Shown here: piece after piece, positions 12,617 to 54,910 of the stretch
Position numbering within the stretch: position 1 is the first letter of the stretch
Layout of the letters: each line of letters begins with the position of its first letter
From: a virus
Virus record (IMG/VR): IMGVR_UViG_3300045988_050655
Reading direction: 5' to 3' (one strand)
Length of the DNA stretch: 64,000 nucleotides
Translations under genes and position numbers: made by a program
Notes under the pieces: model-generated
What the model was told of the DNA's origin: nothing
What the model saw: only the letters and a program-made list of their open reading frames with translations
Databases searched by the model: none

Positions 12617-12654
12617 CTTTCAGTACTTGTGTTATTAATTTAAATGTGTGAGAT

Positions 12655-13098: not shown

Positions 13099-13150
13099 TC
13101 ATATAAACTCCTCAACTAGGAAAAAATATTTTCCCAACTAGAAAAGTAAA

Positions 13151-29700: not shown

Positions 29701-32700
29701 TGCTGACTATGGCGGCTACACCAACCGAGAGAGATTGATTGTCCGTGCGGTTCGTGATGGCAAACTCCCTGAAAAGCCAAAGAAGATGGCACGCAAGAGC
29801 GGATGGTATGAAGCTGTGGCTGATATTATCCCGACCCTGACCGAGAAGAAGAATGGTGTGGCTCCTTGGATGGATATTCGATTGAAGGCTGATGGCATTG
29901 ACTGGCGAAACATTGACAAGCCATTATATGTGATGGGTAGTGCCTATGCTGACGGAAAGGTTCCTCATGCCTTCGCTGATGAACTGCTGCCTACACTCCG
30001 AACCAAGAGCGGTGATGTGATTGTGATGCCTGATGGCAAGGTATATCGTGCCATGGGCAGAGTGCTCGCTAGAGTATCAGGAGTGAGCGATGATTACAAG
30101 ATGCCATTCTCTGAGAATCTGAGCCATACCATCATCGGCAACGGAATCCCTACTCAGTTGACCGAGCATGTTATTGCTCCTCTGCTTACTGGCTCCGACC
30201 CTAAGTTTAGCATCCGTACCTATCACGGCACTGGTGCTAGCTTTGACAAGTTCGATTTATCTCATGCCTTGGAAGGCGAGGGAAGTGAGAGCTTCGGTCA
30301 TGGTGTGTATGTTACCAACTCTAGCAAGATTGGACGTGAGTATGCCCAGAGAGCAAAGAATAGAAAGATGGAAGACCTCTATAAAAATATGCGCTACCCT
30401 GATGGGGTGAAGGGCGATATTTTCAAGAGAAGAGTCTTTGGTGAAATGGTGAACGATGTGGCTACTGGCGGTAGTGTGGCAAGTGCCAAGGAGTTTGCCA
30501 AGAAACGTGTCGGTGCTGATGCCAATGATATTCAGCGTACCCTTGAAAACTTGAAGGATAGAGAGAAGGGAACTGAGTATGAACAGAACTTGAAGGATAG
30601 ACTTGCAGAGTATAAAGAAGGCTTGAAGTGGATTGATTCTCTTGATGAAGATTATCTTACCCAAGGGAACGCTAACAGATACGATGTGGATATTCCTGAT
30701 GATAACGGTGAAAATTACCTTGGATGGAATGAGTCTCAAAACTTCCCATTGGAAAAATGGTACAGACTATGGGAAATAACTCATGAAGGGTTTAATGAAA
30801 ACGAGTATTTCAAAGATGGTGGAGCGAGATATGATATAGATAGGATTGAGCGTATCACCCAAATGAAACTTGAATCGCCAGAGAATGGTATGCAGAGACT
30901 TCCTACATTAAAAGGTGAAGCATTGTATCATGCTTTGGAAGACTTCTTCAACCGTGAAAGACCTTCGTATGGTGCAGAATTAGCATCAAGGGCTTTGAGT
31001 GAAATAGGTTTTGTCGGTATCAAGTACCCTGCTGGAATGATTCATGGCGGTGCTGAGGAAGGAGATTACAACTATGTGATATTCGATGAGAACAATGCCA
31101 ATATCGTGGGTAATACCCGATTCTCCTTGCGCTATGACCAGTTTGAACACGACTTGAACCAGTGGAAGAAGGATAATAATCTGCCTAAGGATGCCCAGCG
31201 ACCAACCATCCCACAACGCAACGCTGGCGAGAGTGCTGCTGCATTCTTGAAGAGAGTGGATGAGTACCGCAAGCAGATGGCTCTTTGGAAGACTGCTCCA
31301 ACATACGAGCAGCATCTTCTGAGTGATGATACTGCCCTTGGAGAGTTCAACCGAGAGTTGCAGCGTGGTTCCGTGCTGAAACGTATCGCCTTCCAAGATA
31401 GTATGCTGGCTATCCGCAAGGCTCAGGAAGCTATCATGAAGGAAGTTGGTGTTGACCGCCTGAATATGGCTGAGGATGCCTATACTGCCGAGAACCGGAG
31501 TCACGGCAAGGGAAAGAATGAGTTTGAGGAGTACAATAATGAGTTCTTGCAGCCATTGAGAAAGGCTTATCACCAGATGAAGAAGATACTTGGTGATAGC
31601 TACGATAATGTCCGTATCTACATGATGGCTAAGCATGGCTTGGAGCGTGATGCCCAGATGGCATTCAAGAAGTCACTGGATGCTGACTTTGAGGATGTGG
31701 CTCAGAGAAGTGCGGCATACAGGGCTTACAAGGGCGATATGAACCGTATTACCAATGATAGCGATTTGGAGTTTGGAAGAGTGGATTTCACTACTTGGAG
31801 GCAGAGAGATAATGCTCTCAGAACGAAATATTCTCCTTCCTATATGGACTATCGTTATGATGAGAATGGTATCGCCTACGATTATTCAGGCTTGTCGGCT
31901 CTCTTCGGTGGCTCTGACTTTGAGGAAGCTGCCCACAAACTGGTAAGGGATATTGAGAGTAGTCATGTAGCTGAGGTGCAAGACCTCTGGAATGCTACGA
32001 ATGCGGCTACCAAGAAGATTCTCCGTGATGGCTATAAGGCTGGTATGATGAGCAAAGATACTTATCAGTATGTGCGAGATATGTATAGCCATTATATTCC
32101 TCTCCGTGGCTGGGATGGCACTACTGCCGACCAAGTATGGGACTATATTGGTGGTGGCAAGGGTGCGTTCAATCAGACCTTGAAAACGGCACATGGACGA
32201 ACCTCTATTGCTGATGACCCTATCGCCTACATCGAGAATATGGCAGAAAGTGGAATCCTGCTGAACAACAAGAACTGGGTGAAGCAACACCTGATGCTCT
32301 TGGCTCAGAATCATCCAACTTCCCTGCTGACCCTGAGCAAGGCTTGGTACGTGAAGAGTACGGATGCCAACGGCAACGAGGAGTGGATTCCTGCTACACT
32401 TCAGATTACTTCTCATATGAATAGCAATCAGGTGAAGGCTGCTATTGATGCTTTCGAGCAGAAGATGGAGAATATGGCGCAGACTGGCGATGCTACCCAG
32501 CAGAGAGAAGGCTTGAATATTGCCTATCCTCAGACTCATAGCGAGGAGAGAGAACATGAGGTAAGAGTGATGAAGGATGGCGAGGAGTATATTATCTATG
32601 TGAATGGTGACCCTCAGTTGGCTCAGGCGATGAACAATACCAGAGCACACCGAGTGAGAGAAATTCAGAGCGGCAAACTGGATAGGGCTGCTGCTTGGTT

Positions 32701-37474: not shown

Positions 37475-37993
37475 ATGTTTCAAGGTTTAAGACAAAATTC
37501 CCTTTTTTACATATTAGACAAGGGAGGAGAAAAACCGACTCTCAGAATCGGTCAGGTTATATCGGTAAGTGACCCTCAGCAGAAGTTCCCGACAACTTAC
37601 ATCCCGAATCAAGTGCCGAACTTCGACACAACGGTTGATGTAAAGGTGAAGGTTGGAGAACAGCAACTCAACTTCGAGAAACTGCCATCCACGGCTCAGA
37701 TAGCCAACTCAGGAACTAATGGTGTAGTTGTCAGCGATAGCCGTGATGCCATGTGCGCAGAGGTTGATTCCATGCTCAGGCAAGCCAAGGGTATCTTGGA
37801 GAGTGTTGACTACAATAAGGCAGTAGTGGAATCATGTGATGAAATAATAGCCAAACTCAATCCTCAGATTGCCAAGGATAAGCAGCAAGAGCAGGACATC
37901 AGTAACCTGAAATCTGACATGAACGGAGTGAAGGGTACGCTATCCGAAATCAAATCTCTTCTGTCTGATGCCTTGAAGCTCAGTAAGAACTAA
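37475..37993 (+). CDS. hypothetical protein
   Basis: 172-aa ORF. Confidence 0.5.
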   Translation: MFQGLRQNSLFYILDKGGEKPTLRIGQVISVSDPQQKFPTTYIPNQVPNFDTTVDVKVKVGEQQLNFEKLPSTAQIANSGTNGVVVSDSRDAMCAEVDSMLRQAKGILESVDYNKAVVESCDEIIAKLNPQIAKDKQQEQDISNLKSDMNGVKGTLSEIKSLLSDALKLSKN

Positions 37994-38009
37994 TAAAGGT
38001 AAGAAGATT

Positions 38010-38291
38010 ATGGTAATGATTGAGATTACAGAAGATAAGTTCGATGATTTGTATGACAACATCGAATCCATGCTTGGTTTTGGCAGCAAGGCTATGTCTT
38101 GTCTGAAAAAGATGAAGCAGGAGCGTATGGGTGAGCGTATGCCTGATTATCGTGACGATTGGAGAAGAGAACGTGAGGAGCGTGAAGAGCGTGAGAACAG
38201 ACGTAGATTCAACAACGTGAACGATGATTGGAACTACCCGAACCGCTATGGTGAAAGAGGTGGTGGCGGCTACAATGGTGGCGGTCGCTAG
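38010..38291 (+). CDS. hypothetical Arg/Glu-rich protein with Gly-rich tail
   Basis: DDWRREREEREERENRRRF...GERGGGGYNGGGR. Confidence 0.45.
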   Translation: MVMIEITEDKFDDLYDNIESMLGFGSKAMSCLKKMKQERMGERMPDYRDDWRREREEREERENRRRFNNVNDDWNYPNRYGERGGGGYNGGGR

Positions 38292-38358
38292 TGTTTAACT
38301 TGGGAGTTTTGGTAGTGACATTTATGTCGAAACCAGACTCCCTTTAATATTCAGCAAT

Positions 38359-38787
38359 ATGGGAAAATGCAGAATGCCATTGGATGTGTATGACCTCAAA
38401 CCTGAGGGGATGGTTTCCTATCTCAGATATAACGGCTATCATTTCAGCAAGAAGATGTGCGAGTGGGCAGTTAAGCAGATGTATAAGTATGACCCTTCCA
38501 CCAAGCGTGATGTAAGTATCTCGTTTTGGGATAAGGAGAAGGTGGATGCTCTTCTGCTCGGTCAGGGAATTGAGGTGAAGAATAAGATAGGCTACGACCA
38601 TGTATATGTGGCTAATATGGCGAGGGCAGACTTCTACAAGTCTTCCATCAAGGATGAGGAGCAGCTAGCCCAGTTTATCAAGGATATGGTGGATGATGCC
38701 GACCAGAAGGATGGTTTTATCTTCAACCGATTCTATGCCGACTGCTGCCATAATGGTGTGCCTATCCCTTGGGAAGATGTGTTATGA
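38359..38787 (+). CDS. hypothetical protein
   Basis: 142-aa ORF. Confidence 0.5.
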   Translation: MGKCRMPLDVYDLKPEGMVSYLRYNGYHFSKKMCEWAVKQMYKYDPSTKRDVSISFWDKEKVDALLLGQGIEVKNKIGYDHVYVANMARADFYKSSIKDEEQLAQFIKDMVDDADQKDGFIFNRFYADCCHNGVPIPWEDVL

Positions 38788-39179
38788 TAAGAAGAGTGAT
38801 TGAACTCCCGAAGTACGATTGGAGCATAGTATGTTTCATAGGTTATCAGCCACCTGATGCCGATGAGATATGCCATGCTCTTTCGGATATTGGCTGCAAC
38901 GGAAATCCGTTATCGGAAGCATATAAGCATCTGTCTTTATCGAGTGGAGATAGGGGGCTTACCTATTCCAATCTATCAGAAAGAAGGAGTGTGCTTGCCA
39001 TTGGGGAGTGTGAATCTGATGGCAGTATCATCAACACAATAGGTCATGAGCTTCTTCATGTGGTAGCGCATATCTGTGAGCAGGATGGAATAGATATGCT
39101 GAGCGAGGAACCATGCTATATGATGGGTAGTTTGTGTGAGAAGTTCTTTGATGTTTCGAGTGTTAATAATGTTAATTGA
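38784..39179 (+). CDS. small HExxH protein (putative zinc metallopeptidase-like)
   Basis: ATGA overlap with the previous stop. TIGHELLHVVAHI. Confidence 0.4.
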   Translation: MIRRVIELPKYDWSIVCFIGYQPPDADEICHALSDIGCNGNPLSEAYKHLSLSSGDRGLTYSNLSERRSVLAIGECESDGSIINTIGHELLHVVAHICEQDGIDMLSEEPCYMMGSLCEKFFDVSSVNNVN

Positions 39180-39203
39180 TAGAGACGAACCGAAATAATT
39201 AGT

Positions 39204-39211
39204 TATCTTTG
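39204..39211 (+). promoter_or_regulatory. Bacteroidota -7 box (TATCTTTG)
   Basis: 22 nt upstream of ATG 39233. Confidence 0.45.
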
Positions 39212-39232
39212 CACTAATAAACATTCAAGCTT

Positions 39233-39490
39233 ATGAAGAAGAAAATTAAAGTTTATTCTATAGGGGTACTTATTTGCATCATCTTTGATGTTGCATTTGC
39301 TACTTTTGTTATTATTTGTGGTAAAATACCAGCTTCTGATTATATCTTTATGGATATATTTCTTTTAATTTCTGATTTTACGATTATTGGATTGTGCTAT
39401 GCTTATTTAAAGGAAAAATCAGGAAATAAATGCTTGGTGATTAAACTACCCGGTACAGTAGATGATGATAGTCTGCCTAAGTTGAAATAG
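39233..39490 (+). CDS. two-helix membrane protein
   Basis: 85 aa with two hydrophobic helices. Confidence 0.45.
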   Translation: MKKKIKVYSIGVLICIIFDVAFATFVIICGKIPASDYIFMDIFLLISDFTIIGLCYAYLKEKSGNKCLVIKLPGTVDDDSLPKLK

Positions 39491-39522
39491 GAAAATAAAA
39501 ACTTGAAGAGGAAATACAAGAA

Positions 39523-39548
39523 AAGGGAGTGCTAAGCAACACTCCCTT
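39523..39548. terminator. bidirectional terminator hairpin between convergent genes
   Basis: aagggagtg-ctaagcaa-cactccctt (9-bp stem), A-rich upstream and T-rich downstream. Confidence 0.6.
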
Positions 39549-39566
39549 CTTCTTTATCTATACGGT

Positions 39567-39764
39567 TTACTCCCCATACTTTGGCTCCTCATACATCAAG
39601 TTATGCGCATCAATGTAAGCCTTGGCTTCTGAGTATGTGTCAAACTCTACTGCGGTGGCATCTACTGATGGGAATACCTCAGCATTGTCACCTTCTTCTG
39701 TGAGAGGGAACGCCATCTTGGTTTCCTCATGTACTACCTTATACTTCTTTGTTAACTTATTCAT
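39567..39764 (-). CDS. hypothetical small acidic protein
   Basis: 65-aa ORF. Confidence 0.45.
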   Translation of the reverse strand: MNKLTKKYKVVHEETKMAFPLTEEGDNAEVFPSVDATAVEFDTYSEAKAYIDAHNLMYEEPKYGE

Positions 39765-39807
39765 GTCTTGTTTCCTTTCTTTATTTTGATGTTATACTTA
39801 CGATACT

Positions 39808-40950
39808 TTATGCAGGAGTGATTAAGACTGTATAGTCCTTCTGCTGCAATTTTTCTACAGCTGTATCTGATGCAGATGTGCGAGTTCCTGCGCACATAAT
39901 TGTTCTTTGTAAAGTTGAAAGACCACTCTTTGCAACACATTGAGCATTATCTTGAAGCATTTTGTCAATATTGCCGATATTGTGATTGCCAAACATACCA
40001 AGCACATAAGCAGAGATGCTTCTTGAACTCCAAGAAAAGACACTGCCCTTATCATCTTGGAAGTTAGCAAAATAGCAAGAGTCTGGTAACTTAGCCAAGT
40101 CACCACTCAACAAGCTATTTTTAGACTCAAAACTGAAAAGCTTTACGTCCCCTTGCAATGAATCTATGTTTCCAGTACAATTCATAACTGAGAAATCATT
40201 TAAAGATGTCTTGCTAGAGAATGCCGAGATATCTCCAATAGCTTTTGTAGATAAAAGGCTGCATGAGACTAGACGTGATTTGTCTGTAAACACATTAATA
40301 TCACCATAAACATCTGTGTTGTAAAAATTAACAACTTGGATATTTTTGCTGCTATTTAAAGCTTTTATGTCTCCACTTATTTTGCAAGAAGAAAGATTTA
40401 CTTGTGACAAATCTGTTAAGTTAGACAAACATGCAATATCTCCATAGACTTTATCTGAATTAATTCTTACATTATTAAGAAAAGTTTTATTCTTAAACAC
40501 AGCAATGTCACCAAATGCATTGGCATTTTTTAGGTTTACAGCAAACAAGCTACGAGAATACTTCAAAGAATCTATGTCAATAGTCCTGTTTGTAACAATA
40601 GAACTATTTGTGTGCCCTGTTGTAAAAAATATCAACGAAGTTAAGGCATATTTGTCTAATATCGCAACTTCAAAATCACCATTACTAACATATACATCAG
40701 TAATATCTGTTATGTTAGTGTAGGCTGGCACTGTTATAACTTTTCCCTTGTTCTGCGTAAGAGTAGAATCAGTAAAGTAACCTTCACCAATAATCTCTAA
40801 TTGGGTGTCTTTAGAGAATGCAAAACCGAATCCCTGAGTGTCCTCCGACGGTGAATCTACTCTACTCACACTTATTCTTAACTCTCCAATTCTTAAGCGC
40901 TTATCATTCTGAACAACGCTTTTTAATTTTGTTACAAAACATTTTTTCAT
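39808..40950 (-). CDS. leucine-rich-repeat protein (tail-fibre-associated / receptor-binding candidate)
   Basis: About seven 23-residue repeats, each ending in GDI. Lies immediately downstream of the tail-fibre gene. Confidence 0.55.
   Translation of the reverse strand: MKKCFVTKLKSVVQNDKRLRIGELRISVSRVDSPSEDTQGFGFAFSKDTQLEIIGEGYFTDSTLTQNKGKVITVPAYTNITDITDVYVSNGDFEVAILDKYALTSLIFFTTGHTNSSIVTNRTIDIDSLKYSRSLFAVNLKNANAFGDIAVFKNKTFLNNVRINSDKVYGDIACLSNLTDLSQVNLSSCKISGDIKALNSSKNIQVVNFYNTDVYGDINVFTDKSRLVSCSLLSTKAIGDISAFSSKTSLNDFSVMNCTGNIDSLQGDVKLFSFESKNSLLSGDLAKLPDSCYFANFQDDKGSVFSWSSRSISAYVLGMFGNHNIGNIDKMLQDNAQCVAKSGLSTLQRTIMCAGTRTSASDTAVEKLQQKDYTVLITPA
40051..40578 (-). repeat. ~23-aa (69-nt) LRR-type coding repeats
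   Basis: GDIAVFKNKTFLNNVRINSDKVY / GDIACLSNLTDLSQVNLSSCKIS / GDIKALNSSKNIQVVNFYNTDVY / GDINVFTDKSRLVSCSLLSTKAI ... Confidence 0.7.
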
Positions 40951-40973: not shown

Positions 40974-43900
40974 TTATCTACTATAGTTGTAAAGAATATC
41001 CATATTTTTCAAATTTTGGACTATCCATTTCTCAACCCTATAAATATTATCACAATGTTTGTATTGCTTAATAGGACTATAAATACTGACCTCATGAGGC
41101 TCATTTACAGCTAATGGTTCGGTAGCTTTTATACAAACAAAATTAAAATATCCCATCTGTTCATTCATGCCAAACGAGACTTTATCTCCGACATTATATG
41201 CCTTTGTTGCATCAAATGTTTCAGACAAACTTGTCTGAATATTGCCATTAGTATCTTTAACTACGTTCCAATACTCAGAGCGAACTATGCTATCAGCAAT
41301 GCAAGGACTATCATTCCATTTTCTGTATTCTTCCTTAAAGAAGTCTGTTCCAATTCTAAGGCACCAATCTTTCAACAATCCAAATATATTATTTGCATTT
41401 ATTATTCCTTTATCAGCCAATTCTTTATACCTATTACTTAATTCTTCTTGATAATAGTTAACAATAAAACCCTCTGGACGCTTTATAAATGACGATACAT
41501 GTGTTGAAAGAGGTTCTGATGTAGAATAACCATGGTCATTAGAGCCAAACGATTGGTCACAGTCATACAAACCTACATATAATTTTACTCCATCATAAGA
41601 GAACCATTGCCAATTTTTTTCAAAACCGTCCGTGTTTTTTATCAAGTCTGAAAGAATTACATAATCTACTAAATTATCAACATCGAAGTACTTTTCAAAT
41701 AATACTTTCATTGCTTGCAAATCTGTTTCAGACTTTGTACCCTCATATTTATCCTTTGCTTCTATCACTTTTGGCAAAGAGTCGGATAAGTTCTCTATTA
41801 TCTGTTTAACTTGAGCTGTGAATAAAAGATTCTTCTTTATCTTTGATGATATTTCCGTGCCATCAGGAAGTGTTCCTGATGTTATCCAAGAATCGACCTC
41901 TGTTTGTCCTGCAATCTCTTCTTGTCTAATATCTGCATCATATTTGTTACCGCCAATAGCATACAATCCCTTGGGGTTACGTATTTCAAATTGACTCCAA
42001 TCTATGTTATCCTTACCTCCAAAGAAAGATGCATGTCCTAATATTCCATCAAGATGTATGTTCTCTGCTACACTCTTGTCCAGATGATAGTTATCTCGAT
42101 GCTTCTTTAGCTGAAAAGAGAAGATGCCATAGAACTTACCATTAAGGTAAACAGCACAAGGGAATCCGTCAGGAAAACATCGTGCTCCAGTATCTGTTAA
42201 TAAAGAATAGTCTCCTACATGAGGATTACCAAGACTCTTGGTAGTAAAGCTGATTTTATTCATTTCAACTAACGCTTTCTTCCAAGGTCTGTCATACATA
42301 TTTCCCCTTGTACGTACAATTTGGTCATATAGCTTGTAAGATACAGCACCAACACCACGGAAGAAATCAGTATAATATGCTTTCATGTGAAAGCTGTCCT
42401 GTGGAACCCATTCACCAATTCTTACTTTCGGGGTCTCATCACCAATCCATTCATCATCGCAAAGGTCGATAGCTACACTCTTCTTGATAAATCCCAAAGA
42501 AGAGTTTCCTTGTGCATTAAGAATGGCACGCTTCTTAAAGTAGTTACCATGCATATCCCAAAACTCCAGGAAAGCCTTCTTGTTATCAGTCTTGGTTGTA
42601 GGCATGGAATCAATATTAGAAACATTAATGATAGCAAATCGAGGCTCTGGTATCTGAATGAAACTACTTTCACTCCAATCAACAGGTGTTTTTACATCAA
42701 AGCCATTTGCTTTGAGAGCATCTTGAATATTATTCACACTATTGCCTTGAAGATTGAGGTTTGAAACATCAAGATTAGTAACTTCCATATCATACTCATG
42801 TTTCTTTCCTTGTAAGTCACGGAAAGACATTACTTTTTCTTCTGCATCTATTGTAATTTCCGTTCTACCTTCAGGGTCTTCAATATGGGAAAATTCTGTT
42901 GGAATAGTTTCGGACTTCGCATTGTGGATATAGTGACTGCCATCAGGATTTGTTGCAGAAAGAATCTTTCCTTCTGCATCTTGCTCAACTGCAAGATATT
43001 CCTCGTTATCCTGTAAAGAGAAAACATCAAGAAGCTCTTTGAGATAGACATCTATTGTATCTACCTTCTCCTGCAATGATGCAAGGTCTGATTGAAGCTG
43101 AGATATAACTTGCTTCAAGGCATTGACTGCATGGATTTCACCAATGATTTGTCCGTCTCTTCGGATGCCAAGGAGTACATGATTAGCTGCATCCTGCCAA
43201 AGAGCGAAGAACTCTTCATTCTGCTCCACATGATACATTTCATTGAGAGGGTAGTATGGCTTACCAGTTGCTCTGTAGAAACCAAAGAGAACCTTATCCT
43301 CAGAATCTACTATCGCCTTGATAAACTCTTCATTCTCGATTATTCTAAAGCACTCCTTTACTTCATCTTCAATGAGAGACTTGCCTTCTTCTTTATCAAC
43401 CTTTCCTTCCTGCAATGCGGTGATGTTTGCAGATAATTCTTCCTTGACGGAATTAATAGATTCAAGAATATCTGTCTTATCTTGCTGGCACTGGTTGATA
43501 ATCTCCTGTAACTTTGCTCTGATAGGTGCAGGAATACCTTTACCCCACTCAATGGAACCATCAAGCTGAATACCCAAAAGGAAGTGGTCTTCTGCATCTA
43601 CTATTGCCTTGATGAACTCTGGAGATTCAATCTCACGGAATGGAAGAGCAAACTGGGAGACTACTTTATCCTTTGAATCACCGAACTCTTGGGCAATATT
43701 TTCCTTGTTGAACTTTTTGTTTGCAAGTTCATCAATGGCTCCTTGTGCAGTGACAGAATCAAGTCCACTCTCTGTGTTCTCGTATGTTACTGCTGAGGCT
43801 TGGCTTGCACCACCACTTGCGGAAATGCCCTTGATGGCTTCCTCCATCTGAGTACTGCGAGTCTGCAACAATGAAATATCATCATCATTGGCGGTGATTT

Positions 43901-44807
43901 GCTGCTGCTTATCGTCAATCTGAGACTGGAGGTCTGTGTCCTTCTCGTGAAGCTGTTTGATAGACTTGTCTACATCTTGAATCATCTGATTTAAATCATC
44001 AGGGAGACCAGTGGCGGCTTGGATGGTTTTACGAAGCTCTGGGTCGAACTTTCCAATGCTTAGCGTGTTGTCTGCTATCTTTTCGTTTGTGACGGAGCCA
44101 TCCTTGATTTTCTCGGTAGTTACAGAATCGGGAGACAACTTGGCGTTACCGATGCTGCCATCTACTACCTGAGAAGCATCGACTGAATTGTCGGCAAGTT
44201 TGTCCTTGGTGATAGATTTTCTTGCTACCTTCTCTGTGGTTACAGACTCATTGGCGAAATGCTTGGTCTCCAAGGATGCCTCACGAACTACTCTGCCATC
44301 TACTGACTGGTCGCCCAACTTTGCATTGGTGATAGCCTTCTCTTCTACCTTCTCCGTGGTTACGGCTCGGTCGTTCAGCTTCTCGGTGATGATAGATTCA
44401 TTCTTAATCTTTTCCGATGTTACCGCATTAGGGGAGAGTTTGGAATTGTCTACTGCGCCATCATTCAACTTATCCGTGGTTACTGCCTTATTGTTGATTT
44501 TTTCGGTCTCTACAGATGAGTCGGCAAGTTTGGAGGTGGTGATGTTGGCATCTGCTACCTTGTCGGTGGTGACGGATGCAGCATCCAGTTTGTCGGTGGT
44601 TACCGATTCATTCTCCAATTTCTCTGTAGTAACGGCTTTGTCGGCAATCTGCGTAGTTCCGAGTTGGTCGGTCTTGTTGACCTTCTCGTCAAGAAGCTCC
44701 TTGGTGGATTTACCCGAACTCTCATCCTTGACATATCTGGTGTATGTCAAGGTCTCGTCGGCTGCTCCACTTACGAGCGTGTTGTTATAAACGGTTTCTT
44801 TTGCCAT
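40974..44807 (-). CDS. tail fibre protein with N-terminal decapeptide repeats and C-terminal CotH-like domain
   Basis: About 20 x (S/A)VTT(E/D)K(L/I)xDx repeats. C-terminal region has FPCAVYLNGKFYGIFSF and VDYVILSDLIKNTDGFEKNWQWFSYDGVKLYVGLYDCDQSFG (CotH signature). Confidence 0.7.
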   Translation of the reverse strand: MAKETVYNNTLVSGAADETLTYTRYVKDESSGKSTKELLDEKVNKTDQLGTTQIADKAVTTEKLENESVTTDKLDAASVTTDKVADANITTSKLADSSVETEKINNKAVTTDKLNDGAVDNSKLSPNAVTSEKIKNESIITEKLNDRAVTTEKVEEKAITNAKLGDQSVDGRVVREASLETKHFANESVTTEKVARKSITKDKLADNSVDASQVVDGSIGNAKLSPDSVTTEKIKDGSVTNEKIADNTLSIGKFDPELRKTIQAATGLPDDLNQMIQDVDKSIKQLHEKDTDLQSQIDDKQQQITANDDDISLLQTRSTQMEEAIKGISASGGASQASAVTYENTESGLDSVTAQGAIDELANKKFNKENIAQEFGDSKDKVVSQFALPFREIESPEFIKAIVDAEDHFLLGIQLDGSIEWGKGIPAPIRAKLQEIINQCQQDKTDILESINSVKEELSANITALQEGKVDKEEGKSLIEDEVKECFRIIENEEFIKAIVDSEDKVLFGFYRATGKPYYPLNEMYHVEQNEEFFALWQDAANHVLLGIRRDGQIIGEIHAVNALKQVISQLQSDLASLQEKVDTIDVYLKELLDVFSLQDNEEYLAVEQDAEGKILSATNPDGSHYIHNAKSETIPTEFSHIEDPEGRTEITIDAEEKVMSFRDLQGKKHEYDMEVTNLDVSNLNLQGNSVNNIQDALKANGFDVKTPVDWSESSFIQIPEPRFAIINVSNIDSMPTTKTDNKKAFLEFWDMHGNYFKKRAILNAQGNSSLGFIKKSVAIDLCDDEWIGDETPKVRIGEWVPQDSFHMKAYYTDFFRGVGAVSYKLYDQIVRTRGNMYDRPWKKALVEMNKISFTTKSLGNPHVGDYSLLTDTGARCFPDGFPCAVYLNGKFYGIFSFQLKKHRDNYHLDKSVAENIHLDGILGHASFFGGKDNIDWSQFEIRNPKGLYAIGGNKYDADIRQEEIAGQTEVDSWITSGTLPDGTEISSKIKKNLLFTAQVKQIIENLSDSLPKVIEAKDKYEGTKSETDLQAMKVLFEKYFDVDNLVDYVILSDLIKNTDGFEKNWQWFSYDGVKLYVGLYDCDQSFGSNDHGYSTSEPLSTHVSSFIKRPEGFIVNYYQEELSNRYKELADKGIINANNIFGLLKDWCLRIGTDFFKEEYRKWNDSPCIADSIVRSEYWNVVKDTNGNIQTSLSETFDATKAYNVGDKVSFGMNEQMGYFNFVCIKATEPLAVNEPHEVSIYSPIKQYKHCDNIYRVEKWIVQNLKNMDILYNYSR
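44037..44666 (-). repeat. 30-nt (10-aa) coding tandem repeats, about 20 copies
   Basis: AVTTEKLENE SVTTDKLDAA SVTTDKVADA NITTSKLADS SVETEKINNK AVTTDKLNDG ... Confidence 0.85.
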
Positions 44808-46138: not shown

Positions 46139-48295
46139 CTATATGATGGTTGCTGCCGAAACAGAAACCTTTCTTCTCATTACTCTTGCCTGATTCTGTA
46201 TCATCTTAGGCATTTCCATTTCGTTGAAGCAGATATGGAGTCCGATGGCTCTTGTCATGAGCAAATCATCGTGCTTACCGTCAATGGCTCCGTATGCTCC
46301 GTTCTTCTTACGCTCATAGGTAAGGTACTCATTTAGGCATCGCTGGTCACGTTCAACGTATAGATGCTCTCTGACTACCTGAACCAGTACTGAGATAACC
46401 ATTGGCTTGGTTGCTACATTGGTATGGAATCCGTACTTACGTGGAAGACCTTCCTTAATGTCTGCTTCGCTCTGCTTGCGTGCATAGAGGTTATCGTACT
46501 CATCCTTGATTTGATTCAGGATGAACTCAGACTGGTCACCACCTTCCAAGATGTGCTCCTTGTCTTTCGTCTCTAAGGTGTTGGATTCAATTACCAAGAG
46601 GGCATTATCGTAGTACTTGGCTATCTGGGCAGCCTTCCATGCCAACAAGTCCATATCTATGTGTCCGTACCATTGGGCTACCACATACGGCTTGCCACCT
46701 TCCATCATCCAATAGCGGTCGAAGACACAGATAACAGACCAGTCTGCCTTGCTACCTCTACCACCAATATCTACTACTACCAGATAGCGGTTGGTTACTT
46801 TGCAATCGTCAAAGTACTCAGGCTTGCTCCATATCCACAACTGCCCAGTCTTGTCTTCCGAGAATCGTACATTCTGTAGGCATTTCTTGCCCTTGTAACC
46901 ATCCCCATATACGTCACCGATGAATTTTGGTGCTCTGCAACCTTTCTTGAACTGGTCAACTTTCTCTTCTGCAAATACCTTGGCTCCTGAGTGCTTGAAA
47001 GCCTCTACTGGGTCAGAAGGGAATCCGCTAGCCATATCTCCGTGGTCAGTGAACTTCTTGCGTTCCACGATATACCAGTTAAGAGCTTCCAACGGTGCTC
47101 CCATCTGCCACAACTTCCAAAGATAAGTTACTGGCTCCTCACGATTCGACATCGTGTTGGTGTTGTTGCGGTTTTCGTATAGCCATTTGGCGAACTCCTC
47201 TTTCTGTTTCTTGCTCTCGAAGTCAAGATGGTAGAGGTCGTAAATCTCAAACCAAGGAACGAAGAACGGCTCAAATACAGATTCACCTTTCTCTGCTGCC
47301 AGCCACTCCTGATGGAAGAAGTTTCCAGTACCATTGGCGGTTGATTCATATACAATCATCGTGTATGGTCGGTAGAGCACACCATTGGTTGCATTCTGGA
47401 TAACCTCCTCAGGAGACTTACCTTCTGTCTTCTCCCATAATCCTACCTCGGAGCAGTGGATGAGGTTGTAATCTTCACCATTTGCAGAAGTAGGTTTCTG
47501 CATGGAACCTACTTTAATCTTGCAGAATCGCTGAGGAACCTTCTTCACGTTTCCTGATGTTCCAACTCCAACAAACTTAGGCTCGCTATCAGAATATACT
47601 TCGCCCATTTCGTGCAGGAACTTGGTTGGAAATTCCTTCAACGCTTCATCGAACATGCCTCGGATGGTTTCTGCGGTGTCCTTGACCTGAGCAATAATCA
47701 GCGAGTTGAGACCCTTCTGCCACATGAGTTGCAGCCAGAGGAAGTACATCTGAATGACCGTAGAACCTCCCCATTGTCGGGCTTTCAGCAGGATGAGACG
47801 GATAGGGCGATTTTTCTTTCTTCGCTCCTCCAGCCACCTGAGCAGTCTGCGCTGCGGTCTTCTGAGCACAAAGCGGAAGGGGAGACCTCCACCTTTCGGT
47901 TTGATATAGATGAACGTGGCGAAAAAGAAGAAGGGGTCGTGTTTCATCCTGATGCGAGTGAACTGCTCCACCAGTTGCTCCATTTCTTCCTCTAGGTTGT
48001 ATGGCTCGTCTATATCCTTGTGCAGTTCCTCGATTACTGCCTTGCAGCTACCCAGTTCGATGAGCATCTTGACGAGCGGAATTTTCTTCATCGAAACAGG
48101 AAGCTGCTGTCTCTGAATCGGGAAATCAGGAAGGAAGAGCAGAAATCGCTTGTCTCCACAACCTTCACCCTTGATAGGATTGAAGGGTGTGTTGATTTCC
48201 TTGATGCGTTTCTCGTTCTCTTTCAGGATGCCCAATACGTGTTTGTCTAGAGCATCTGTGAGTTTGGCTTGTGTGGCGGTTACTTGTCTTGGCAT
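46139..48295 (-). CDS. terL: terminase large subunit
   Basis: ILLKARQWGGSTVIQ (Walker A-type), YNLIHCSEVGLWE (Walker B), VVVDIGGRGSKADWSVICVFD (RNase H-like nuclease). ATG 48295 (MPRQVTATQ) was chosen. The track ORF extends to 48367. Confidence 0.85.
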   Translation of the reverse strand: MPRQVTATQAKLTDALDKHVLGILKENEKRIKEINTPFNPIKGEGCGDKRFLLFLPDFPIQRQQLPVSMKKIPLVKMLIELGSCKAVIEELHKDIDEPYNLEEEMEQLVEQFTRIRMKHDPFFFFATFIYIKPKGGGLPFRFVLRRPQRRLLRWLEERRKKNRPIRLILLKARQWGGSTVIQMYFLWLQLMWQKGLNSLIIAQVKDTAETIRGMFDEALKEFPTKFLHEMGEVYSDSEPKFVGVGTSGNVKKVPQRFCKIKVGSMQKPTSANGEDYNLIHCSEVGLWEKTEGKSPEEVIQNATNGVLYRPYTMIVYESTANGTGNFFHQEWLAAEKGESVFEPFFVPWFEIYDLYHLDFESKKQKEEFAKWLYENRNNTNTMSNREEPVTYLWKLWQMGAPLEALNWYIVERKKFTDHGDMASGFPSDPVEAFKHSGAKVFAEEKVDQFKKGCRAPKFIGDVYGDGYKGKKCLQNVRFSEDKTGQLWIWSKPEYFDDCKVTNRYLVVVDIGGRGSKADWSVICVFDRYWMMEGGKPYVVAQWYGHIDMDLLAWKAAQIAKYYDNALLVIESNTLETKDKEHILEGGDQSEFILNQIKDEYDNLYARKQSEADIKEGLPRKYGFHTNVATKPMVISVLVQVVREHLYVERDQRCLNEYLTYERKKNGAYGAIDGKHDDLLMTRAIGLHICFNEMEMPKMIQNQARVMRRKVSVSAATII

Positions 48296-48759
48296 AGCGG
48301 TGCATTTAAATATCCCCACAACAGACCAAGTACATAGCAATAGATGTGGACTCCAACTGCCATGCAAGGGAAGAAGATTCCAACACAGATATATAGGAGA
48401 ATGGTGAGATTGTATCTTACCTTATTCTCCACGTAGGGGGCGATAAAGCCCATGTAAGCATAGATAAAGCCGCTGAGACCGATGATTGGTAGGGATGAGG
48501 TGAAGGGATAGCTGACGGCTATGAGATAGAATGCCACCATGTGACCGATGCCGCAATGGATGGCTCGGTAGCATTGATGGAAGACGTAAAGGTTGATGGC
48601 TGCATGAAAGATGTTCTGATGAAAGAAAGGGTAGCTTAGTCGGTTCTGAATAGAACAACCGTCTGAGAGACCCATGCCATCATATCCTAGAAAAGTGATA
48701 CACATTATTATAATGTACCCAGCATAAAGCGCAATCTTTTCTTTCGTCTCTCGTAGCAT
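48280..48759 (-). CDS. rhomboid-family intramembrane serine protease
   Basis: FFHQNIFHAAINL (H-x4-H-x3-N, TM2), IIGLSGFIYAYMGF (GxSG, TM4), VGVHIYCYVLGLLWG (His, TM6). Six hydrophobic segments. Overlaps terL by 16 nt and the upstream gene by 52 nt (alternative ATG at 48705). Confidence 0.8.
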   Translation of the reverse strand: MLRETKEKIALYAGYIIIMCITFLGYDGMGLSDGCSIQNRLSYPFFHQNIFHAAINLYVFHQCYRAIHCGIGHMVAFYLIAVSYPFTSSLPIIGLSGFIYAYMGFIAPYVENKVRYNLTILLYICVGIFFPCMAVGVHIYCYVLGLLWGYLNAPLCQDK

Positions 48760-49295: not shown

Positions 49296-50111
49296 ATGGA
49301 CGAAAATACAAATATTGAGCAGAATGCTGGTGCTGCAAAACAGCAAGACACCAAGACCAAGAGAGACTTGGCTTTGGAGCGTTTGAAGACCCGCCACCCT
49401 GACACGGAGTATGCGGATGATGAGGCTATGTATGGGGCAATCAATGATGATTATGATGCCGACCAGAAGGCTTTGCAGGGTTACAAGGATAACGAGAAGG
49501 CGATGGGCGATTGGCTGGGTAGTGACCCTGAGGCGGCTACCTTCCTTCAAGCGATGAAGGCTGGCAAGAGTCCTTACGCTGAGTTGATTCGTACTCATGG
49601 TGAGGATGCCATTGACTACTACTCTGACCCTGACAATGCGGATGAGATTGCATCGGCTCAGTCGGAGTTCTTGCAGAATGCTGCCAACGGCAAGAAATTG
49701 CAGGAGGAGTATGACAAGAACATGCCATCCAGCTATGAAGTATTCGACAAGTTGGAAGAGAAGTATGGCGAGGAAGCTGTGAATGAAGCCATTGACCAGT
49801 GCTTTCAGACAATGCGCAATGTGGTGACTGGTAAGTTTACCGAGGAAATGATTACTGCTTTCATCAAGGCTAAGAACCATGATACCGATGTGGCTGATGC
49901 GGCACATGAGGGTGAGGTTCGTGGCAAGAACAGCAAGCACGTCAAGAACTTGCAGCTACGCAAGAAGGGTGATGGTACTGCCGACCTTGATTCTGCCAAT
50001 GCGGAGACCAAGCCAACGGATAACCAGCCTGACCTTGGTGCTGTGGGCAGGGTATCACGAAGGGGTAACGTCTGGGAACGTGGTAACGAGAAGAGAACAC
50101 ACATTAGATAA
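49296..50111 (+). CDS. acidic scaffold-like protein
   Basis: D/E-rich helical protein directly upstream of the capsid gene. ATG 49296 lies within track ORF 49269-50111. Confidence 0.45.
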   Translation: MDENTNIEQNAGAAKQQDTKTKRDLALERLKTRHPDTEYADDEAMYGAINDDYDADQKALQGYKDNEKAMGDWLGSDPEAATFLQAMKAGKSPYAELIRTHGEDAIDYYSDPDNADEIASAQSEFLQNAANGKKLQEEYDKNMPSSYEVFDKLEEKYGEEAVNEAIDQCFQTMRNVVTGKFTEEMITAFIKAKNHDTDVADAAHEGEVRGKNSKHVKNLQLRKKGDGTADLDSANAETKPTDNQPDLGAVGRVSRRGNVWERGNEKRTHIR

Positions 50112-50164: not shown

Positions 50165-51706
50165 ATGAAGAAAAGTACATTTAATCGGCTGCTTTCCATC
50201 TTCCTGATGGTTATGGCAGTTATTTTTGGAGTGAATGGTCAGGTTATCATGGCTGAGGCGGCAAATCTGCCTGATGGCGGTAGTACCGAGAGTGGTGCTG
50301 CTGCCGAGGCTGGTGGTGCTCCTGCTGCTGGTGAGGCTGGCAATGGTGGTGCGGCTCGTCAGAGTGAAGGTATCAAGACTGAGACTCAGGGTCGTGAGCA
50401 CTATAACGAGAACGGCACGGAGTATTACCTGAACGACATTGATGAGAAGATTACCAAGATTCGCCCGATGGCTACTCCAGTTGACCAGATTTCACGCTAT
50501 GCGACAACCAAGTCTGCCAATTCATTTGTAGTTGAGTATTGGAGTATCGGTACACGTCCTATCAAGACTACCGTGAAGGAAGCAACGGTGGAGAGTACTG
50601 GTACATCTATGGTATTGAAGGTAGAAGACCCTACCATGTTTACGCTGGATGATACCATCCGAGTGGTAGGCGTGAAGGCAATTACCAACTATAAGGGTGT
50701 TGCATATTCTACCATTACTGATGCTCCTACTCCTGATTTGGAACTTTGCGTTTGCGGTAAGGACACAGAGGGCTACCCTATTGTATATGCCGTAAATGGT
50801 AAGTTGATTAACAAGCAGGCTATCGGTGTTCCTGCCTTGAAGAAGGGTCAGAAGCTTATCCGTATGGCTAAGAGTTGTGGTGAAATGGACGTTCAGACGG
50901 GTCGTTTCAACAACCTTCCTGCATCTGAGACCCAGTATTGTCAGAACTTCATGATTCAGGTTGAGCAGAGTACCTTCGACAAGATTGCAGCCAAGCGAGT
51001 GGATTGGGACTTCTCGGACATTGAGGAGGATAGCATCTATGATATGCGTCTTGCCATGGAGGGTACTTATCTCTTCGGTGATATGGCTTGCATCAAGCAT
51101 GAGGTTAAGAATGGTTCTGCCCAGTGGTTTACCAAGGGTATCTGGTGGATGGCTGGTAAGGACATTGAGGTAGGTCATGTTGCTACTGCTGATGATATTA
51201 AGAAGGGCTACAACAAGAATGAGCGAGTGATTACCGACTTGGAGTTGGTTGACATTTCCAAGGACTTGTTTGTGGGTACTGGTATCGGCAACAAACGCAA
51301 GGTGATTATCGCTGGTTCTGACTTCGTGAGCGCATTCAGCAAGATTGATTCCGACAAGTTCCGCTTGAAGGACACCGTTGATATTTGGAAGTTGAAGTTC
51401 AAGAGTTGGGAGACTGACTTTGGTGAGGTGCTGATGATTCACTCTGAGTTGTTCGACCTCTTCGGCATGAGTGACTGCGGCTTTGCCCTTGACCCTGAGT
51501 TCTTGGTTAAGCGAGTACACTTGTCTTGGACACGAAACGTGCTCGACTTGAAGGCGGCTGGCATCCGTAACACCGATGCAGTGGTTATTCAGGAGGTAGC
51601 TTGTCTGTACTTGAAGTACCCTAAGGCACATGCTCGTATGCGCCTTGCCAAGATTCCTGAGGAGGTTTCTCAGACAGATGATGCAGAGGTGAAGGCTGCT
51701 GCCTAA
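50165..51706 (+). CDS. major capsid protein candidate (HK97-fold, SU10/DUF5309-like pattern)
   Basis: EKITKIRPMATPVDQISRYATTKSANSFVVEYWSIG resembles the MCP 'I..I.P..TP......' signature. Lies between the scaffold-like and portal genes and is followed by a strong terminator. The N-terminus is signal-peptide-like. An alternative ATG lies at 50249. Confidence 0.6.
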   Translation: MKKSTFNRLLSIFLMVMAVIFGVNGQVIMAEAANLPDGGSTESGAAAEAGGAPAAGEAGNGGAARQSEGIKTETQGREHYNENGTEYYLNDIDEKITKIRPMATPVDQISRYATTKSANSFVVEYWSIGTRPIKTTVKEATVESTGTSMVLKVEDPTMFTLDDTIRVVGVKAITNYKGVAYSTITDAPTPDLELCVCGKDTEGYPIVYAVNGKLINKQAIGVPALKKGQKLIRMAKSCGEMDVQTGRFNNLPASETQYCQNFMIQVEQSTFDKIAAKRVDWDFSDIEEDSIYDMRLAMEGTYLFGDMACIKHEVKNGSAQWFTKGIWWMAGKDIEVGHVATADDIKKGYNKNERVITDLELVDISKDLFVGTGIGNKRKVIIAGSDFVSAFSKIDSDKFRLKDTVDIWKLKFKSWETDFGEVLMIHSELFDLFGMSDCGFALDPEFLVKRVHLSWTRNVLDLKAAGIRNTDAVVIQEVACLYLKYPKAHARMRLAKIPEEVSQTDDAEVKAAA

Positions 51707-52873: not shown

Positions 52874-54910
52874 ATGGCAAAGAAGAAAGAAAAAGCTAAA
52901 TTGCTATCGTTGAGCAAGGTGATTGATAAGGATGAACTGGATAGCGTGAAGGAGTCGATGAAACGCTTTGACCGACCTTATGAGCGTGCCTTCTCTATCT
53001 TGCTGGAGGCTCAGCGATATTACAACAACATGGATAACTTCCGAAAGCGAAGACTGAGAAACAAGCGATACTGCTATGGAGACCAGTGGGGAGATACCAT
53101 TGAGTTTAAAAGCAAGTGTGGCTTTAAAAAGCGTATCAGGGAGGAAGACTATATCCGTGAGCAGGGTAGCGAACCATTGAAGAACAACCTTATCCGTAGG
53201 TTGGTTAAGAATGTGCTGGGTGTGTATCGCTCTCAGAGCAAGGAACCGACATGCAACGCTAGAGATAAGGATGAGAAACGATATGGCGAGACCATGAGCG
53301 TGGTGCTGCAATGTAACCGACAACTGAACCGAGAGACGGAACTGGATGCCCGAACCATGGAAGAGTTCCTGATTAGTGGTGCTGCTATCTATAAGAAAAA
53401 GTATGGATGGCGAAGGGGGAGGCTGGATTGCTGGACGGACTACGTGAATCCGAACAATTTCTTCATAGATAACAATATGAGGGATTTCCGTGGTTGGGAC
53501 GTGAGTTGCTTGGGTGAGGTGCATGATATTACCATCGGTAACGTGCTGAGAGAGTTTGCCAAGTCTCCTGCTGAAGCTAGGAAGTTGAAGGAGATATACA
53601 GACTGGCAGCTAACCGTGATTTCGTGATTGCTGATTGCACCAAGCGATTCGGTGAGTTCGACCCTAGGACTATTGACTTTATGAATCCTTCTAACCCTTC
53701 ACTCTGCCGAGTGATAGAGGTTTGGCGCAAGGAGAGTAAACCGAGATACCGATGCCACGACTACAACAATGGCGATGATTTCAAAATTGATATTGAGGAT
53801 AAGGCTGATATTGTAGATGCAGAGAACAGAGACAGAATCAGGCGAGGTATGGCTGCTGGCATGATGGAAGAGGATATTCCTCTGATTGATGCCGAATGGT
53901 TTATGGATGATTACTGGCATTTCTACTATCTTTCTCCTTTCGGTGATATTCTGAGAGAAGGAGAGACCCCTTATGCTCATGGTGAGCATCCATATTGCTT
54001 TAAGTTCTATCCGTTTATTGATGGTGAGATTCACAGCTTCGTGGAAGATGTGATTGACCAGCAGAGATACGTGAACCGACTTATCACGATGTATGACTTC
54101 ATCATGAGGGCGAGTGCCAAGGGTGTGCTGCTCTGTCCTGAGGATTGTCTGCCTGATGATATGAGTTGGGATGATTTCTGCGATGAGTGGAGTAGGTTCA
54201 ATGGTGTGGTGAGATACAAGCCAAATAAGAGCGGTCAGGTTCCTCAGCAAGTGGCGAACAACTCTACGAATATCGGTATCGGTGACTTGCTCAGCTATCA
54301 GTTGAAGTTCTTCGAGGATATATCGGGAGTGAATGGTGCGCTGCAAGGTAAACCAGGAGTATCGGGTACGAGCGGTTCGCTTTATGCCCAGCAGACACAG
54401 AATGCTACCATGTCGCTGCTTGATATTTTGGAGAGCTTCAGCCAGTTTATCATTGATGGTGCTTACAAGACTGTGAAGAATATGCAGCAGTACTATGACG
54501 TGGCTCGAAACTTCAATATCGTTGGTAGGGCAGGACAGATTGTACACTACGACCCTAAGAAGATTAGAGACGTGGAGTTTGACATCAACATCACGGAAAG
54601 TACGGTTACTCCTGTATACAGACAGATGGCGAATGAGTTCCTTATGACCTTGTGGCAGAATCAGGCTATCACGCTGGAGCAGTTGCTGCAAGTAGGAGAT
54701 TTCCCATTTGGAGAGGAGTTGCTGCAATCGGTTGCATCCAACCAGCAAGCCATTCAGAATGGTGAGACTCCACAAGGATTCTCTCCTCAGCTTCAAGCCC
54801 AAGTTGCTCAGGCATCACAGAGCAATCCGAAGGCTCAGGCGATGTTGCAGCAGATGATGAGCGGGCAGGGAGTGAGTCCTGATGGACAGAATCCACCGCT
54901 GGCGGCATAA
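52874..54910 (+). CDS. portal protein
   Basis: 678 aa. YYNNMDNFRKRRLRNKRYCYGDQWGD is the typical portal N-terminal motif. Q-rich C-terminus. Confidence 0.7.
   Translation: MAKKKEKAKLLSLSKVIDKDELDSVKESMKRFDRPYERAFSILLEAQRYYNNMDNFRKRRLRNKRYCYGDQWGDTIEFKSKCGFKKRIREEDYIREQGSEPLKNNLIRRLVKNVLGVYRSQSKEPTCNARDKDEKRYGETMSVVLQCNRQLNRETELDARTMEEFLISGAAIYKKKYGWRRGRLDCWTDYVNPNNFFIDNNMRDFRGWDVSCLGEVHDITIGNVLREFAKSPAEARKLKEIYRLAANRDFVIADCTKRFGEFDPRTIDFMNPSNPSLCRVIEVWRKESKPRYRCHDYNNGDDFKIDIEDKADIVDAENRDRIRRGMAAGMMEEDIPLIDAEWFMDDYWHFYYLSPFGDILREGETPYAHGEHPYCFKFYPFIDGEIHSFVEDVIDQQRYVNRLITMYDFIMRASAKGVLLCPEDCLPDDMSWDDFCDEWSRFNGVVRYKPNKSGQVPQQVANNSTNIGIGDLLSYQLKFFEDISGVNGALQGKPGVSGTSGSLYAQQTQNATMSLLDILESFSQFIIDGAYKTVKNMQQYYDVARNFNIVGRAGQIVHYDPKKIRDVEFDINITESTVTPVYRQMANEFLMTLWQNQAITLEQLLQVGDFPFGEELLQSVASNQQAIQNGETPQGFSPQLQAQVAQASQSNPKAQAMLQQMMSGQGVSPDGQNPPLAA

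Follow-up and report, generated by a model that had tools for sequence, protein, structure and literature searches.

Why does a temperate Bacteroidales phage carry a gene for an intramembrane protease among its DNA-packaging genes, and what would such an enzyme cut? The locus that raises this question lies in a 64,000-nucleotide (nt) stretch of viral DNA, IMG/VR record IMGVR_UViG_3300045988_050655 (hereafter the window). Between the genes at the positions of the small and large terminase subunits, TerS and TerL, it encodes a protein of 159 amino acids (aa) that a reading of the sequence alone had identified as a GlpG-type rhomboid protease. We combined profile searches, structure prediction, selection analysis and the comparison of related phages and prophages. 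The gene belongs to a family of compact rhomboids, and across the loci compared its presence coincides strictly with a hydrophobic, signal-peptide-like segment at the N-terminus of the major capsid protein.

A family of compact rhomboids

The 159-aa open reading frame (ORF) and its translation are exactly as quoted in the sequence-only reading, and the three rhomboid motifs claimed there, in transmembrane (TM) helices 2, 4 and 6, all hold on the DNA (Table 1), where H47 is encoded at 48619-48621 and N56 at 48592-48594. By alignment, S96 is the putative nucleophile, matching S201 of GlpG, and H138 the putative general base. C141 and G145 follow H138 at the places of the GlpG GxxxG motif, only part of which survives: the first Gly has given way to C141, and the second position, G145, is conserved. 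Of the WR motif of loop L1 only the Arg is kept, as R40, which precedes H47 by seven residues and shows at least 90% conservation in a 33-sequence family alignment (A1); the Trp is absent from the window protein and variable in others.

On its own, the window protein gives a borderline match to the Pfam Rhomboid model PF01694 (E=0.14, 12.8 bits; cut-off 22.6 bits), no match in PHROGs even at E<=1 and none in NCBIfam at E<=1. Its homologues form 68 clusters at 90% identity, all of ~158 aa. Used as a profile, A1 matched GlpG of Haemophilus influenzae (2nr9) at E=4.4e-7 and that of Escherichia coli at ~3e-3, with the TM2, TM4 and TM6 motifs in register, residue for residue. PF01694 was matched by 32 of the 33 A1 members (best E=1.6e-5), and a precomputed PF01694 match is present on several homologues. 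The AlphaFold model computed from A1, which has low confidence (predicted local distance difference test, pLDDT, 63), consists of six long helices and a short L1 helix (H2-24, H37-41, H50-66, H71-83, H96-109, H113-129, H135-152), in agreement with the roughly six hydrophobic segments counted earlier. Foldseek comparison of this model with the PDB returned GlpG structures as all of the top 25 matches (TM-score 0.6-0.68), with iRhom and Der1 next.

In 36 diverse prophage homologues, with identities down to ~25%, the invariant positions are exactly H47, H52, G94, S96 and H138; N56 is invariant in A1 and in a further alignment, A6, and nearly invariant in the 36-sequence set. Lys and Arg are clustered in the N-terminal tail, loop 4/5 and the C-terminal tail, a distribution that predicts the topology of GlpG (N-in/C-in, active site open towards the periplasm). 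Together with the synteny described below, the profile, fold and conservation evidence supports the core of the sequence-only reading, namely a rhomboid-family intramembrane serine protease whose Ser/His dyad is intact. A search of 1.84 billion cluster representatives with the A1 profile found 637 proteins at E<=1e-3 and 252 at E<=1e-10, and the best 150 representatives were nearly all 150-180 aa long. A second profile, made from divergent members, again recovered ~160-aa proteins only, except among the very weakest matches. These proteins form a discrete "mini-rhomboid" family with no extramembrane domain, a shortened L1 loop and an apparently intact catalytic apparatus.

A core gene of the packaging operon

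The rhomboid gene overlaps both of its neighbours. Its start overlaps the upstream 151-aa gene by exactly 52 nt, as had been stated, and the reported 16-nt overlap of its stop with TerL holds when TerL starts at the ATG at 48295 (MPRQV...). This ATG lies 24 codons inside the maximal, TTG-start ORF of TerL, and homology with other TerL proteins starts shortly 3' of it. We take the rhomboid for a late gene, probably translated together with the TerS-position gene and TerL via these overlapping frames. In all relatives the TerS-position gene immediately precedes the rhomboid or TerL; it has no Pfam match and no PDB profile match, and its label is positional only.

A full-length rhomboid stands between the TerS-position gene and TerL in 79/79 close IMG/VR relatives with enough flanking sequence. 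Homologues with 29-35% identity occupy the same genome position in the Bacteroides phages BS-TP4, BKO1-TP3 and BF1-TP2 (Gut Microbes 2025, PMC12694917), the only cultured relatives of the window phage, and a tblastn search of 50,697 phage records with two divergent family members found the same three phages only. In distant metagenomic contexts, capsid and scaffold genes run in one direction, followed by the TerS-position gene, the rhomboid and TerL in the other. Throughout the isolated phages, IMG/VR relatives and metagenomic contexts examined, the rhomboid was never located elsewhere in the genome. Across 71 distinct alleles, the ratio of nonsynonymous to synonymous substitution rates (dN/dS) was 0.12 in the part of the gene that overlaps no other gene, indicating purifying selection. 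This value, the fixed synteny and the presence of the gene beside TerL in all surveyed close relatives bear out the description of the rhomboid as an embedded core gene of the packaging operon and not a moron. The dN/dS value and the conservation also rule out a chance ORF or an overlap artefact.

Two further observations concern this part of the operon. Among loci L006-L085, which are otherwise 89-99% identical, the TerS-position gene falls into three allele classes with ~96%, ~74% and ~63% identity to the window, and the rhomboid alleles partly co-vary with these classes (95-97%, 84-87% and 89-93%, respectively), pointing to frequent recombination within the packaging operon. Some longer ORFs end in a rhomboid domain (P0069, 292 aa; L149 3650..4573, 307 aa; L162 7164..7934, 256 aa) and may be TerS-position/rhomboid fusions or over-extended ORF calls.

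Co-occurrence of rhomboid and capsid anchor

The capsid protein of the window starts MKKSTFNRLLSIFLMVMAVIFGVNGQVIMAEAANLPDGG, which comprises a positive start, a hydrophobic core, an AxA motif and an acidic, Gly/Ala-rich linker. Anchor and linker lie ahead of the HK97-fold body, where the Pfam match begins at residue 83, and the capsid protein is the only product of the head/packaging module with a TM-like segment. With TerL as probe, we collected 80 prophage loci out of GTDB species genomes, spanning Bacteroides, Phocaeicola, Prevotella, Alistipes, Muribaculaceae, Rikenellaceae and others, and scored each for the rhomboid and for the hydrophobicity of the capsid N-terminus (15-residue Kyte-Doolittle peak). 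Every rhomboid-positive locus with a detectable capsid gene had a hydrophobic capsid N-terminus (36/36, peak at least 1.77), whereas every rhomboid-negative locus had a hydrophilic one (26/26, peak at most 1.49), typically MDGETVNVGG.... A simple sum on the Hessa scale separates the two groups more widely still (-1.3 to 2.6 versus 5.6 to 13.9). The rhomboid-negative capsid genes have no hidden upstream extension; at these loci the TerS-position gene abuts TerL, and no rhomboid was found within 8 kb on either side. Three extra rhomboid-positive contigs obey the same rule.

Some of the loci (L115, L117, L119, L126, L129, L131, L135, L142 and L149) came from bins named Staphylococcus, Eggerthellaceae, Anaerovoracaceae, Flexilinea, Oscillospiraceae, Eubacteriales, Clostridia or Sphaerochaetaceae. 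They are most likely mis-binned contigs rather than evidence of true hosts.

The association holds across two capsid types, A (window-like) and B (L089, L092), which are 23-26% identical to each other; type B is slightly nearer to the rhomboid-less type C (30-33%) than to type A. On the TerL tree the rhomboid state switches five times, and the nearest positive-negative TerL pair is separated by a distance of 0.28, compared with 0.66 for a typical positive-positive pair. A further contrast is that between BS-TP4 and the rhomboid-less locus L128: TerL, the TerS-position protein and the scaffold are 71%, 74% and 73% identical, whereas the L128 capsid protein shares only 26% identity with that of BS-TP4 and is without the anchor. 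The differences between the two, capsid type with anchor on one side and the rhomboid on the other, are not adjacent, and the conserved scaffold and TerS-position genes lie between them. Taken together, the two capsid types, the five switches and this contrast argue against mere phylogeny or physical linkage as the cause of the pairing. A functional pair would leave just such a pattern, and the strict co-occurrence lends strong comparative support to the capsid N-terminus as a candidate substrate, which the sequence-only reading had listed among several.

The anchor and its junction

In relatives down to 45% identity, the reading frame of the anchor is kept with in-frame indels. Aligned N-termini of rhomboid-positive capsid proteins read M..KK, hydrophobic core, G-A-S-S-G-V-(M)-M-A-x-A-(S/T)-x-L-P-D-A-G-K-T, and conservation at the junction extends well past the bare AxA. 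The junction offers a small residue at the presumed P1 and, four positions earlier, a large hydrophobic one, which are the preferences described for bacterial rhomboids; it also satisfies the -3/-1 rule of signal peptidase I. Signal peptidase I substrates of Bacteroidetes characteristically expose Gln (the Q-rule, PMC10367356), and the secreted protein at 12655 in the window follows that rule (...GVQA before the site, Q after it). In rhomboid-positive capsid proteins, Gln never directly follows AxA. Capsid proteins of rhomboid-less relatives begin about where the anchor ends, so that removal of the anchor would yield equivalent mature proteins. A search of the PDB with the capsid profile gave no sequence match. 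Signal peptides have been predicted before on capsid proteins of Porphyromonas phages, where cleavage by a prohead protease was assumed (PMC10367356).

A possible processing step and the points against it

Our best reading, to which we give even chances, is that the rhomboid is a dedicated processing enzyme for the capsid membrane anchor. A capsid precursor with a Bacteroides-style signal/anchor (MKK, hydrophobic core, GASSGV-MAxA) would go to the inner membrane. Its MAxA-(S/T)xLPDAG junction should lie in the periplasmic leaflet, towards which the Ser96/His138 site is predicted to open; the rhomboid would cut at this junction, and the mature N-terminus would then match the anchor-less capsid proteins of rhomboid-less relatives. 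Anchor and protease would constitute a two-part add-on to an assembly pathway that otherwise resembles that of P22, with a scaffold and without a protease, the purpose of the add-on being, for example, membrane-localised or timed capsid assembly. This fuller account, with the capsid protein made as a membrane-anchored precursor, freed by a phage intramembrane rhomboid, and the add-on placing or timing assembly at the membrane, is offered tentatively and falls a little short of an even chance.

A number of points weigh against this scheme, and topology is its weak point. On the N-terminal side of its hydrophobic core the anchor carries 2-4 Lys/Arg, and the stretch that follows the core is acidic and free of positive charge; by the positive-inside rule this predicts an N-in/C-out orientation like that of a secretory signal. 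Classical rhomboid substrates are N-out/C-in, the opposite direction, with Drosophila Star, a type II protein, as a reported exception. An N-in/C-out anchor would place the MAxA junction in the periplasmic leaflet, the same place as the predicted active site, but it also implies export of the capsid body, which cannot be a productive route, and the topology picture is to that extent incomplete. The missing element could be an unusual mode of insertion, cleavage at a very early stage, or initiation inside the frame at Met29, which is largely conserved. Such an internal start could equally give an anchor-less capsid protein by itself, with the anchored form as a minor isoform; position 29 is Val, Thr, Phe or Ile in a few relatives, and the Met29 start is thus not universal. 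Host signal peptidase I, too, could cut at the same AxA site. Among rhomboid-positive phages, distance matrices show the divergence of the rhomboid to be correlated more closely with that of TerL (r=0.88) and TerS (r=0.85) than with that of the capsid (r=0.75), and this weaker correlation means that there is no specific signal of rhomboid-capsid co-evolution. The presence/absence pattern is the product of only a handful of independent evolutionary events, and the structural model of the rhomboid has low confidence.

The sequence-only reading had also remarked that no conventional prohead protease is recognisable in the window. Pfam and PHROG scans indeed found no protease match for the rhomboid gene or any scanned head-module gene. 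The observation is uninformative as to the role of the rhomboid: rhomboid-less relatives have the same head-module gene order and likewise show no obvious protease gene, as far as can be told for genomes that were not profile-scanned. The same comparison, with the same limit, led us to reject the idea that the rhomboid replaces a lost prohead protease.

Alternative explanations

An active rhomboid could have another client. The AxA junction fits signal peptidase I, and the anchor may be cut by the host enzyme, or kept, while the rhomboid acts on some other phage-made target: the protein at 18987, the membrane proteins at 11745-13552, with a role in lysis timing, or the thousands of cleaved anchor peptides, which it would clear as a signal-peptide-peptidase-like enzyme. 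The best candidate among these is the 18987 protein, proposed earlier as a substrate for its Gly-zipper helix; it has the classical orientation (the helix is followed by NRKARRK, predicting N-out/C-in) and a small-residue-rich helix; it is kept in BKO1-TP3 and BF1-TP2, and its helix is ~10 residues shorter in a distant rhomboid-less clade. The protein at 12173..12616 likewise has an N-terminal TM segment followed by positive charges. However, no tie of these proteins to the rhomboid state emerges in the closest rhomboid-less relatives, where they fall outside the flanks compared, and the lysis-like genes lie 35 kb from the rhomboid. Cleaved signal peptides are N-in and present the same orientation problem as the intact anchor, and the strict coupling of the rhomboid to the capsid anchor would have to be indirect. 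We consider a division of labour of this kind unlikely; as for the Gly-zipper substrate itself, its conservation in the two cultured phages stands, but the comparative support for it is weak. Separately, the 18987-type helix spans 20-24 residues in rhomboid-positive phages and only ~10 hydrophobic residues before NRK/RRK in L114, L125, L134, L138, L141, L147, L150 and L151, and the length of this helix, too, may thus vary together with the rhomboid.

It is improbable, in our judgement, that the rhomboid is directed at host inner-membrane proteins, in takeover, superinfection exclusion or late envelope remodelling, and rides with the head module for other reasons. Cellular rhomboids do cut host membrane proteins, a rhomboid appears among the putative morons of Stenotrophomonas phage DLP5, and the phage substrate proposed here is a candidate from sequence comparison. 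Yet the gene overlaps both packaging genes and is found nowhere else in the genome, it is lost or gained along with the capsid anchor even where the flanking genes are 71-74% identical, and it does not resemble host rhomboids but belongs to a family of its own, the top 150 representatives of which are nearly all 150-180 aa. Least probable of all, and in our view very doubtful, is a mainly non-proteolytic role as a Derlin/iRhom-like membrane receptor or chaperone for the anchor that docks procapsid assembly or packaging. Pseudoproteases of the rhomboid superfamily bind TM helices, iRhom and Der1 are among the fold matches, and the gene sits between two terminase-position genes. Such pseudoproteases typically lose catalytic residues, whereas in the mini-rhomboids the catalytic Ser and His, the Gly of GxS and the two TM2 His are invariant despite ~25% identity, as is the TM2 Asn in A1.

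Relation to known systems

The mini-rhomboid has partial parallels in several systems. GlpG (MEROPS S54; E. coli, H. influenzae) shares its six-TM core, the three motifs in register and the predicted topology, and provides its best fold matches. The window protein differs from GlpG in its size of ~160 aa without a cytoplasmic domain, in a much shorter L1 that keeps only the Arg of the WR motif, and in TM6, where H-x2-C-x3-G replaces the H-x2-G-x3-G of GlpG. It is also phage-encoded, lies in a packaging operon, and as a single sequence stays under the Pfam and NCBIfam cut-offs.

The NCBIfam model with the most matches in the family is that of rhombosortase, TIGR03902 (25/33 members, best E=6.6e-5, under the curated cut-off). 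Because the matches to both the rhombosortase and GlpG models stay under their cut-offs, we file the mini-rhomboid under neither and treat rhombosortase as an analogy. The rhombosortase/GlyGly-CTERM system likewise joins a small rhomboid to a dedicated sorting signal on its clients, and that pairing was also recognised through co-occurrence. Here, by contrast, the signal is N-terminal and signal-peptide-like instead of a C-terminal GlyGly-TM-Arg tail, and the client would be a viral capsid protein. A TM scan of the window gave no obvious candidate for a GlyGly-CTERM protein, although no dedicated search was made.

AarA of Providencia stuartii activates TatA by trimming a short N-terminal piece beside a TM helix, with a small residue before the cut and a hydrophobic P4. 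Unlike the capsid anchor, TatA is N-out and its TM helix stays on the product; in the capsid protein the hydrophobic segment is on the side that would be removed and is apparently N-in. Prohead proteases of the HK97 gp4 and T4 gp21 types resemble the proposed enzyme in logical role only, as phage-encoded enzymes that remove an N-terminal segment of the capsid protein. Their fold is unrelated, and they are soluble and act inside the procapsid, whereas the mini-rhomboid is an integral membrane protein. The rhomboid-less relatives, finally, are without both the rhomboid protease and the anchor.

The sequence-only reading knew of no characterised phage rhomboid. Our search of the literature turned up no study of a rhomboid from a phage or other virus, which leaves that statement standing in part; homologues had already been labelled, and GenBank gives BS-TP4 gp8 and BF1-TP2 gp59 as 'rhomboid domain-containing protein' or 'rhomboid family intramembrane serine protease'. 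The text of the BS-TP4 paper (PMC12694917) never mentions a rhomboid, and a 'rhomboid membrane protein' is listed as a moron in phage DLP5. In the literature searched we found no source for a distinct mini-rhomboid family, for its place as a core gene of a widespread gut phage lineage, or for its strict pairing with, or any other link to, a capsid anchor.

Some GenBank labels at this locus are at odds with our assignments. TerL of BS-TP4 (gp7, L001 9509..11605), BF1-TP2 (gp60, L002 9485..11512) and BKO1-TP3 (37896..39983) is labelled 'tail spike protein'; these proteins are 47-59% identical to the window TerL, and their own GenBank notes cite structural terminase matches. The rhomboid position of BKO1-TP3 is labelled 'glycoside hydrolase / hypothetical'.

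The phage and its head module

Genes for an integrase, a Rha/ANT antirepressor, a C5 methylase, an RNase H and a tail fibre accompany the head and packaging genes in the window. The scaffold-position gene is transcribed divergently from the packaging genes (Table 1). The Bacteroides-type -33/-7 promoter pattern is not enriched in the window (3 matches versus 1.3 expected), and none lies in the divergent intergenic region.

Table 1. Rhomboid, candidate substrates and head/packaging genes in the window
Feature	Coordinates	Strand	Remarks
Mini-rhomboid gene	48280..48759	-	159 aa, ATG start; member of the ~160-aa family
TM2 motif H47-x4-H52-x3-N56	48592..48621	-	FFHQNIFHAAINL, read from the DNA; corresponds to GlpG H145/H150/N154
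TM4 motif G94-L-S96-G97	48469..48480	-	reverse complement GGTCTCAGCGGC codes GLSG
H138 codon, TM6	48346..48348	-	aligned to GlpG H254
Capsid residues 1-33	50165..50263	+	MKKSTFNR, hydrophobic core, GVNGQVIMAEA; signal-peptide-like membrane anchor, proposed rhomboid target
Major capsid protein, SU10/DUF5309 type, 513 aa	50165..51706	+	PF17236 SU10_MCP E=1.8e-27, residues 83-493; phrog_26635
Acidic scaffold-position protein	49296..50111	+	phrog_22323; conserved place upstream of capsid gene
TerS-position gene, 151 aa	48708..49163	-	phrog_27246 (unknown function), E=3e-36
TerL, 718 aa from ATG 48295	46139..48295	-	phrog_2, E=5e-20; tblastn matches to annotated TerL
P22-type portal, end of head module	52874..54910	+	PF16510 E=7e-35; phrog_156
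Gly-zipper protein, 223 aa	18987..19658	+	secondary candidate substrate; N-terminal helix MLGALIGAGLGLASSIAGGVA, then NRKARRK

Other regions of the window merit a brief description. A single polyvalent protein of 4641 aa (20786..34711, plus strand) combines a C5 cytosine methylase, the nuclease domains PBECR1 and PBECR5, the domains LPD3 and LPD38, and an ADP-ribosyltransferase, and relatives have similar giant proteins (BS-TP4 gp3, ~16 kb; an ORF of 3837 aa in L169). The run of small membrane proteins at 11745..13552 (plus strand), none with a PHROG match, may be a lysis cassette; it encodes a 3-TM protein, another in which a charged coiled region follows an N-terminal TM segment, the secreted protein whose signal peptide ends ...GVQA before Q, and a C-terminally anchored protein. 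At 40974..44807 (minus strand), a 1277-aa tail-fibre-like protein has a C-terminal CotH kinase-like domain (Pfam E=2.6e-10).

Significance

TerL relatives of the window phage are present in hundreds of Bacteroidales species genomes and number more than 500 in each of IMG/VR and GTDB, and BS-TP4 has been reported in 31% of 930 viromes. For genome annotation, the mini-rhomboids are a family that Pfam and PHROGs miss at default thresholds. To our knowledge, few bacterial rhomboids have a known natural substrate, and a one-to-one pair of rhomboid and client signal in the cultured phages BS-TP4, BKO1-TP3 and BF1-TP2 would be a tractable system. Were the proposed processing true, no earlier rhomboid from a virus would have had a defined substrate, and tailed phages would gain their first capsid-maturation protease embedded in a membrane; the helix that this rhomboid cuts would possibly be N-in and signal-peptide-like. 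A common group of temperate phages of the human gut would then route its capsid protein via the membrane, outside textbook tailed-phage assembly. The pairing of rhomboid and anchor suggests an undescribed, membrane-linked step in capsid maturation.

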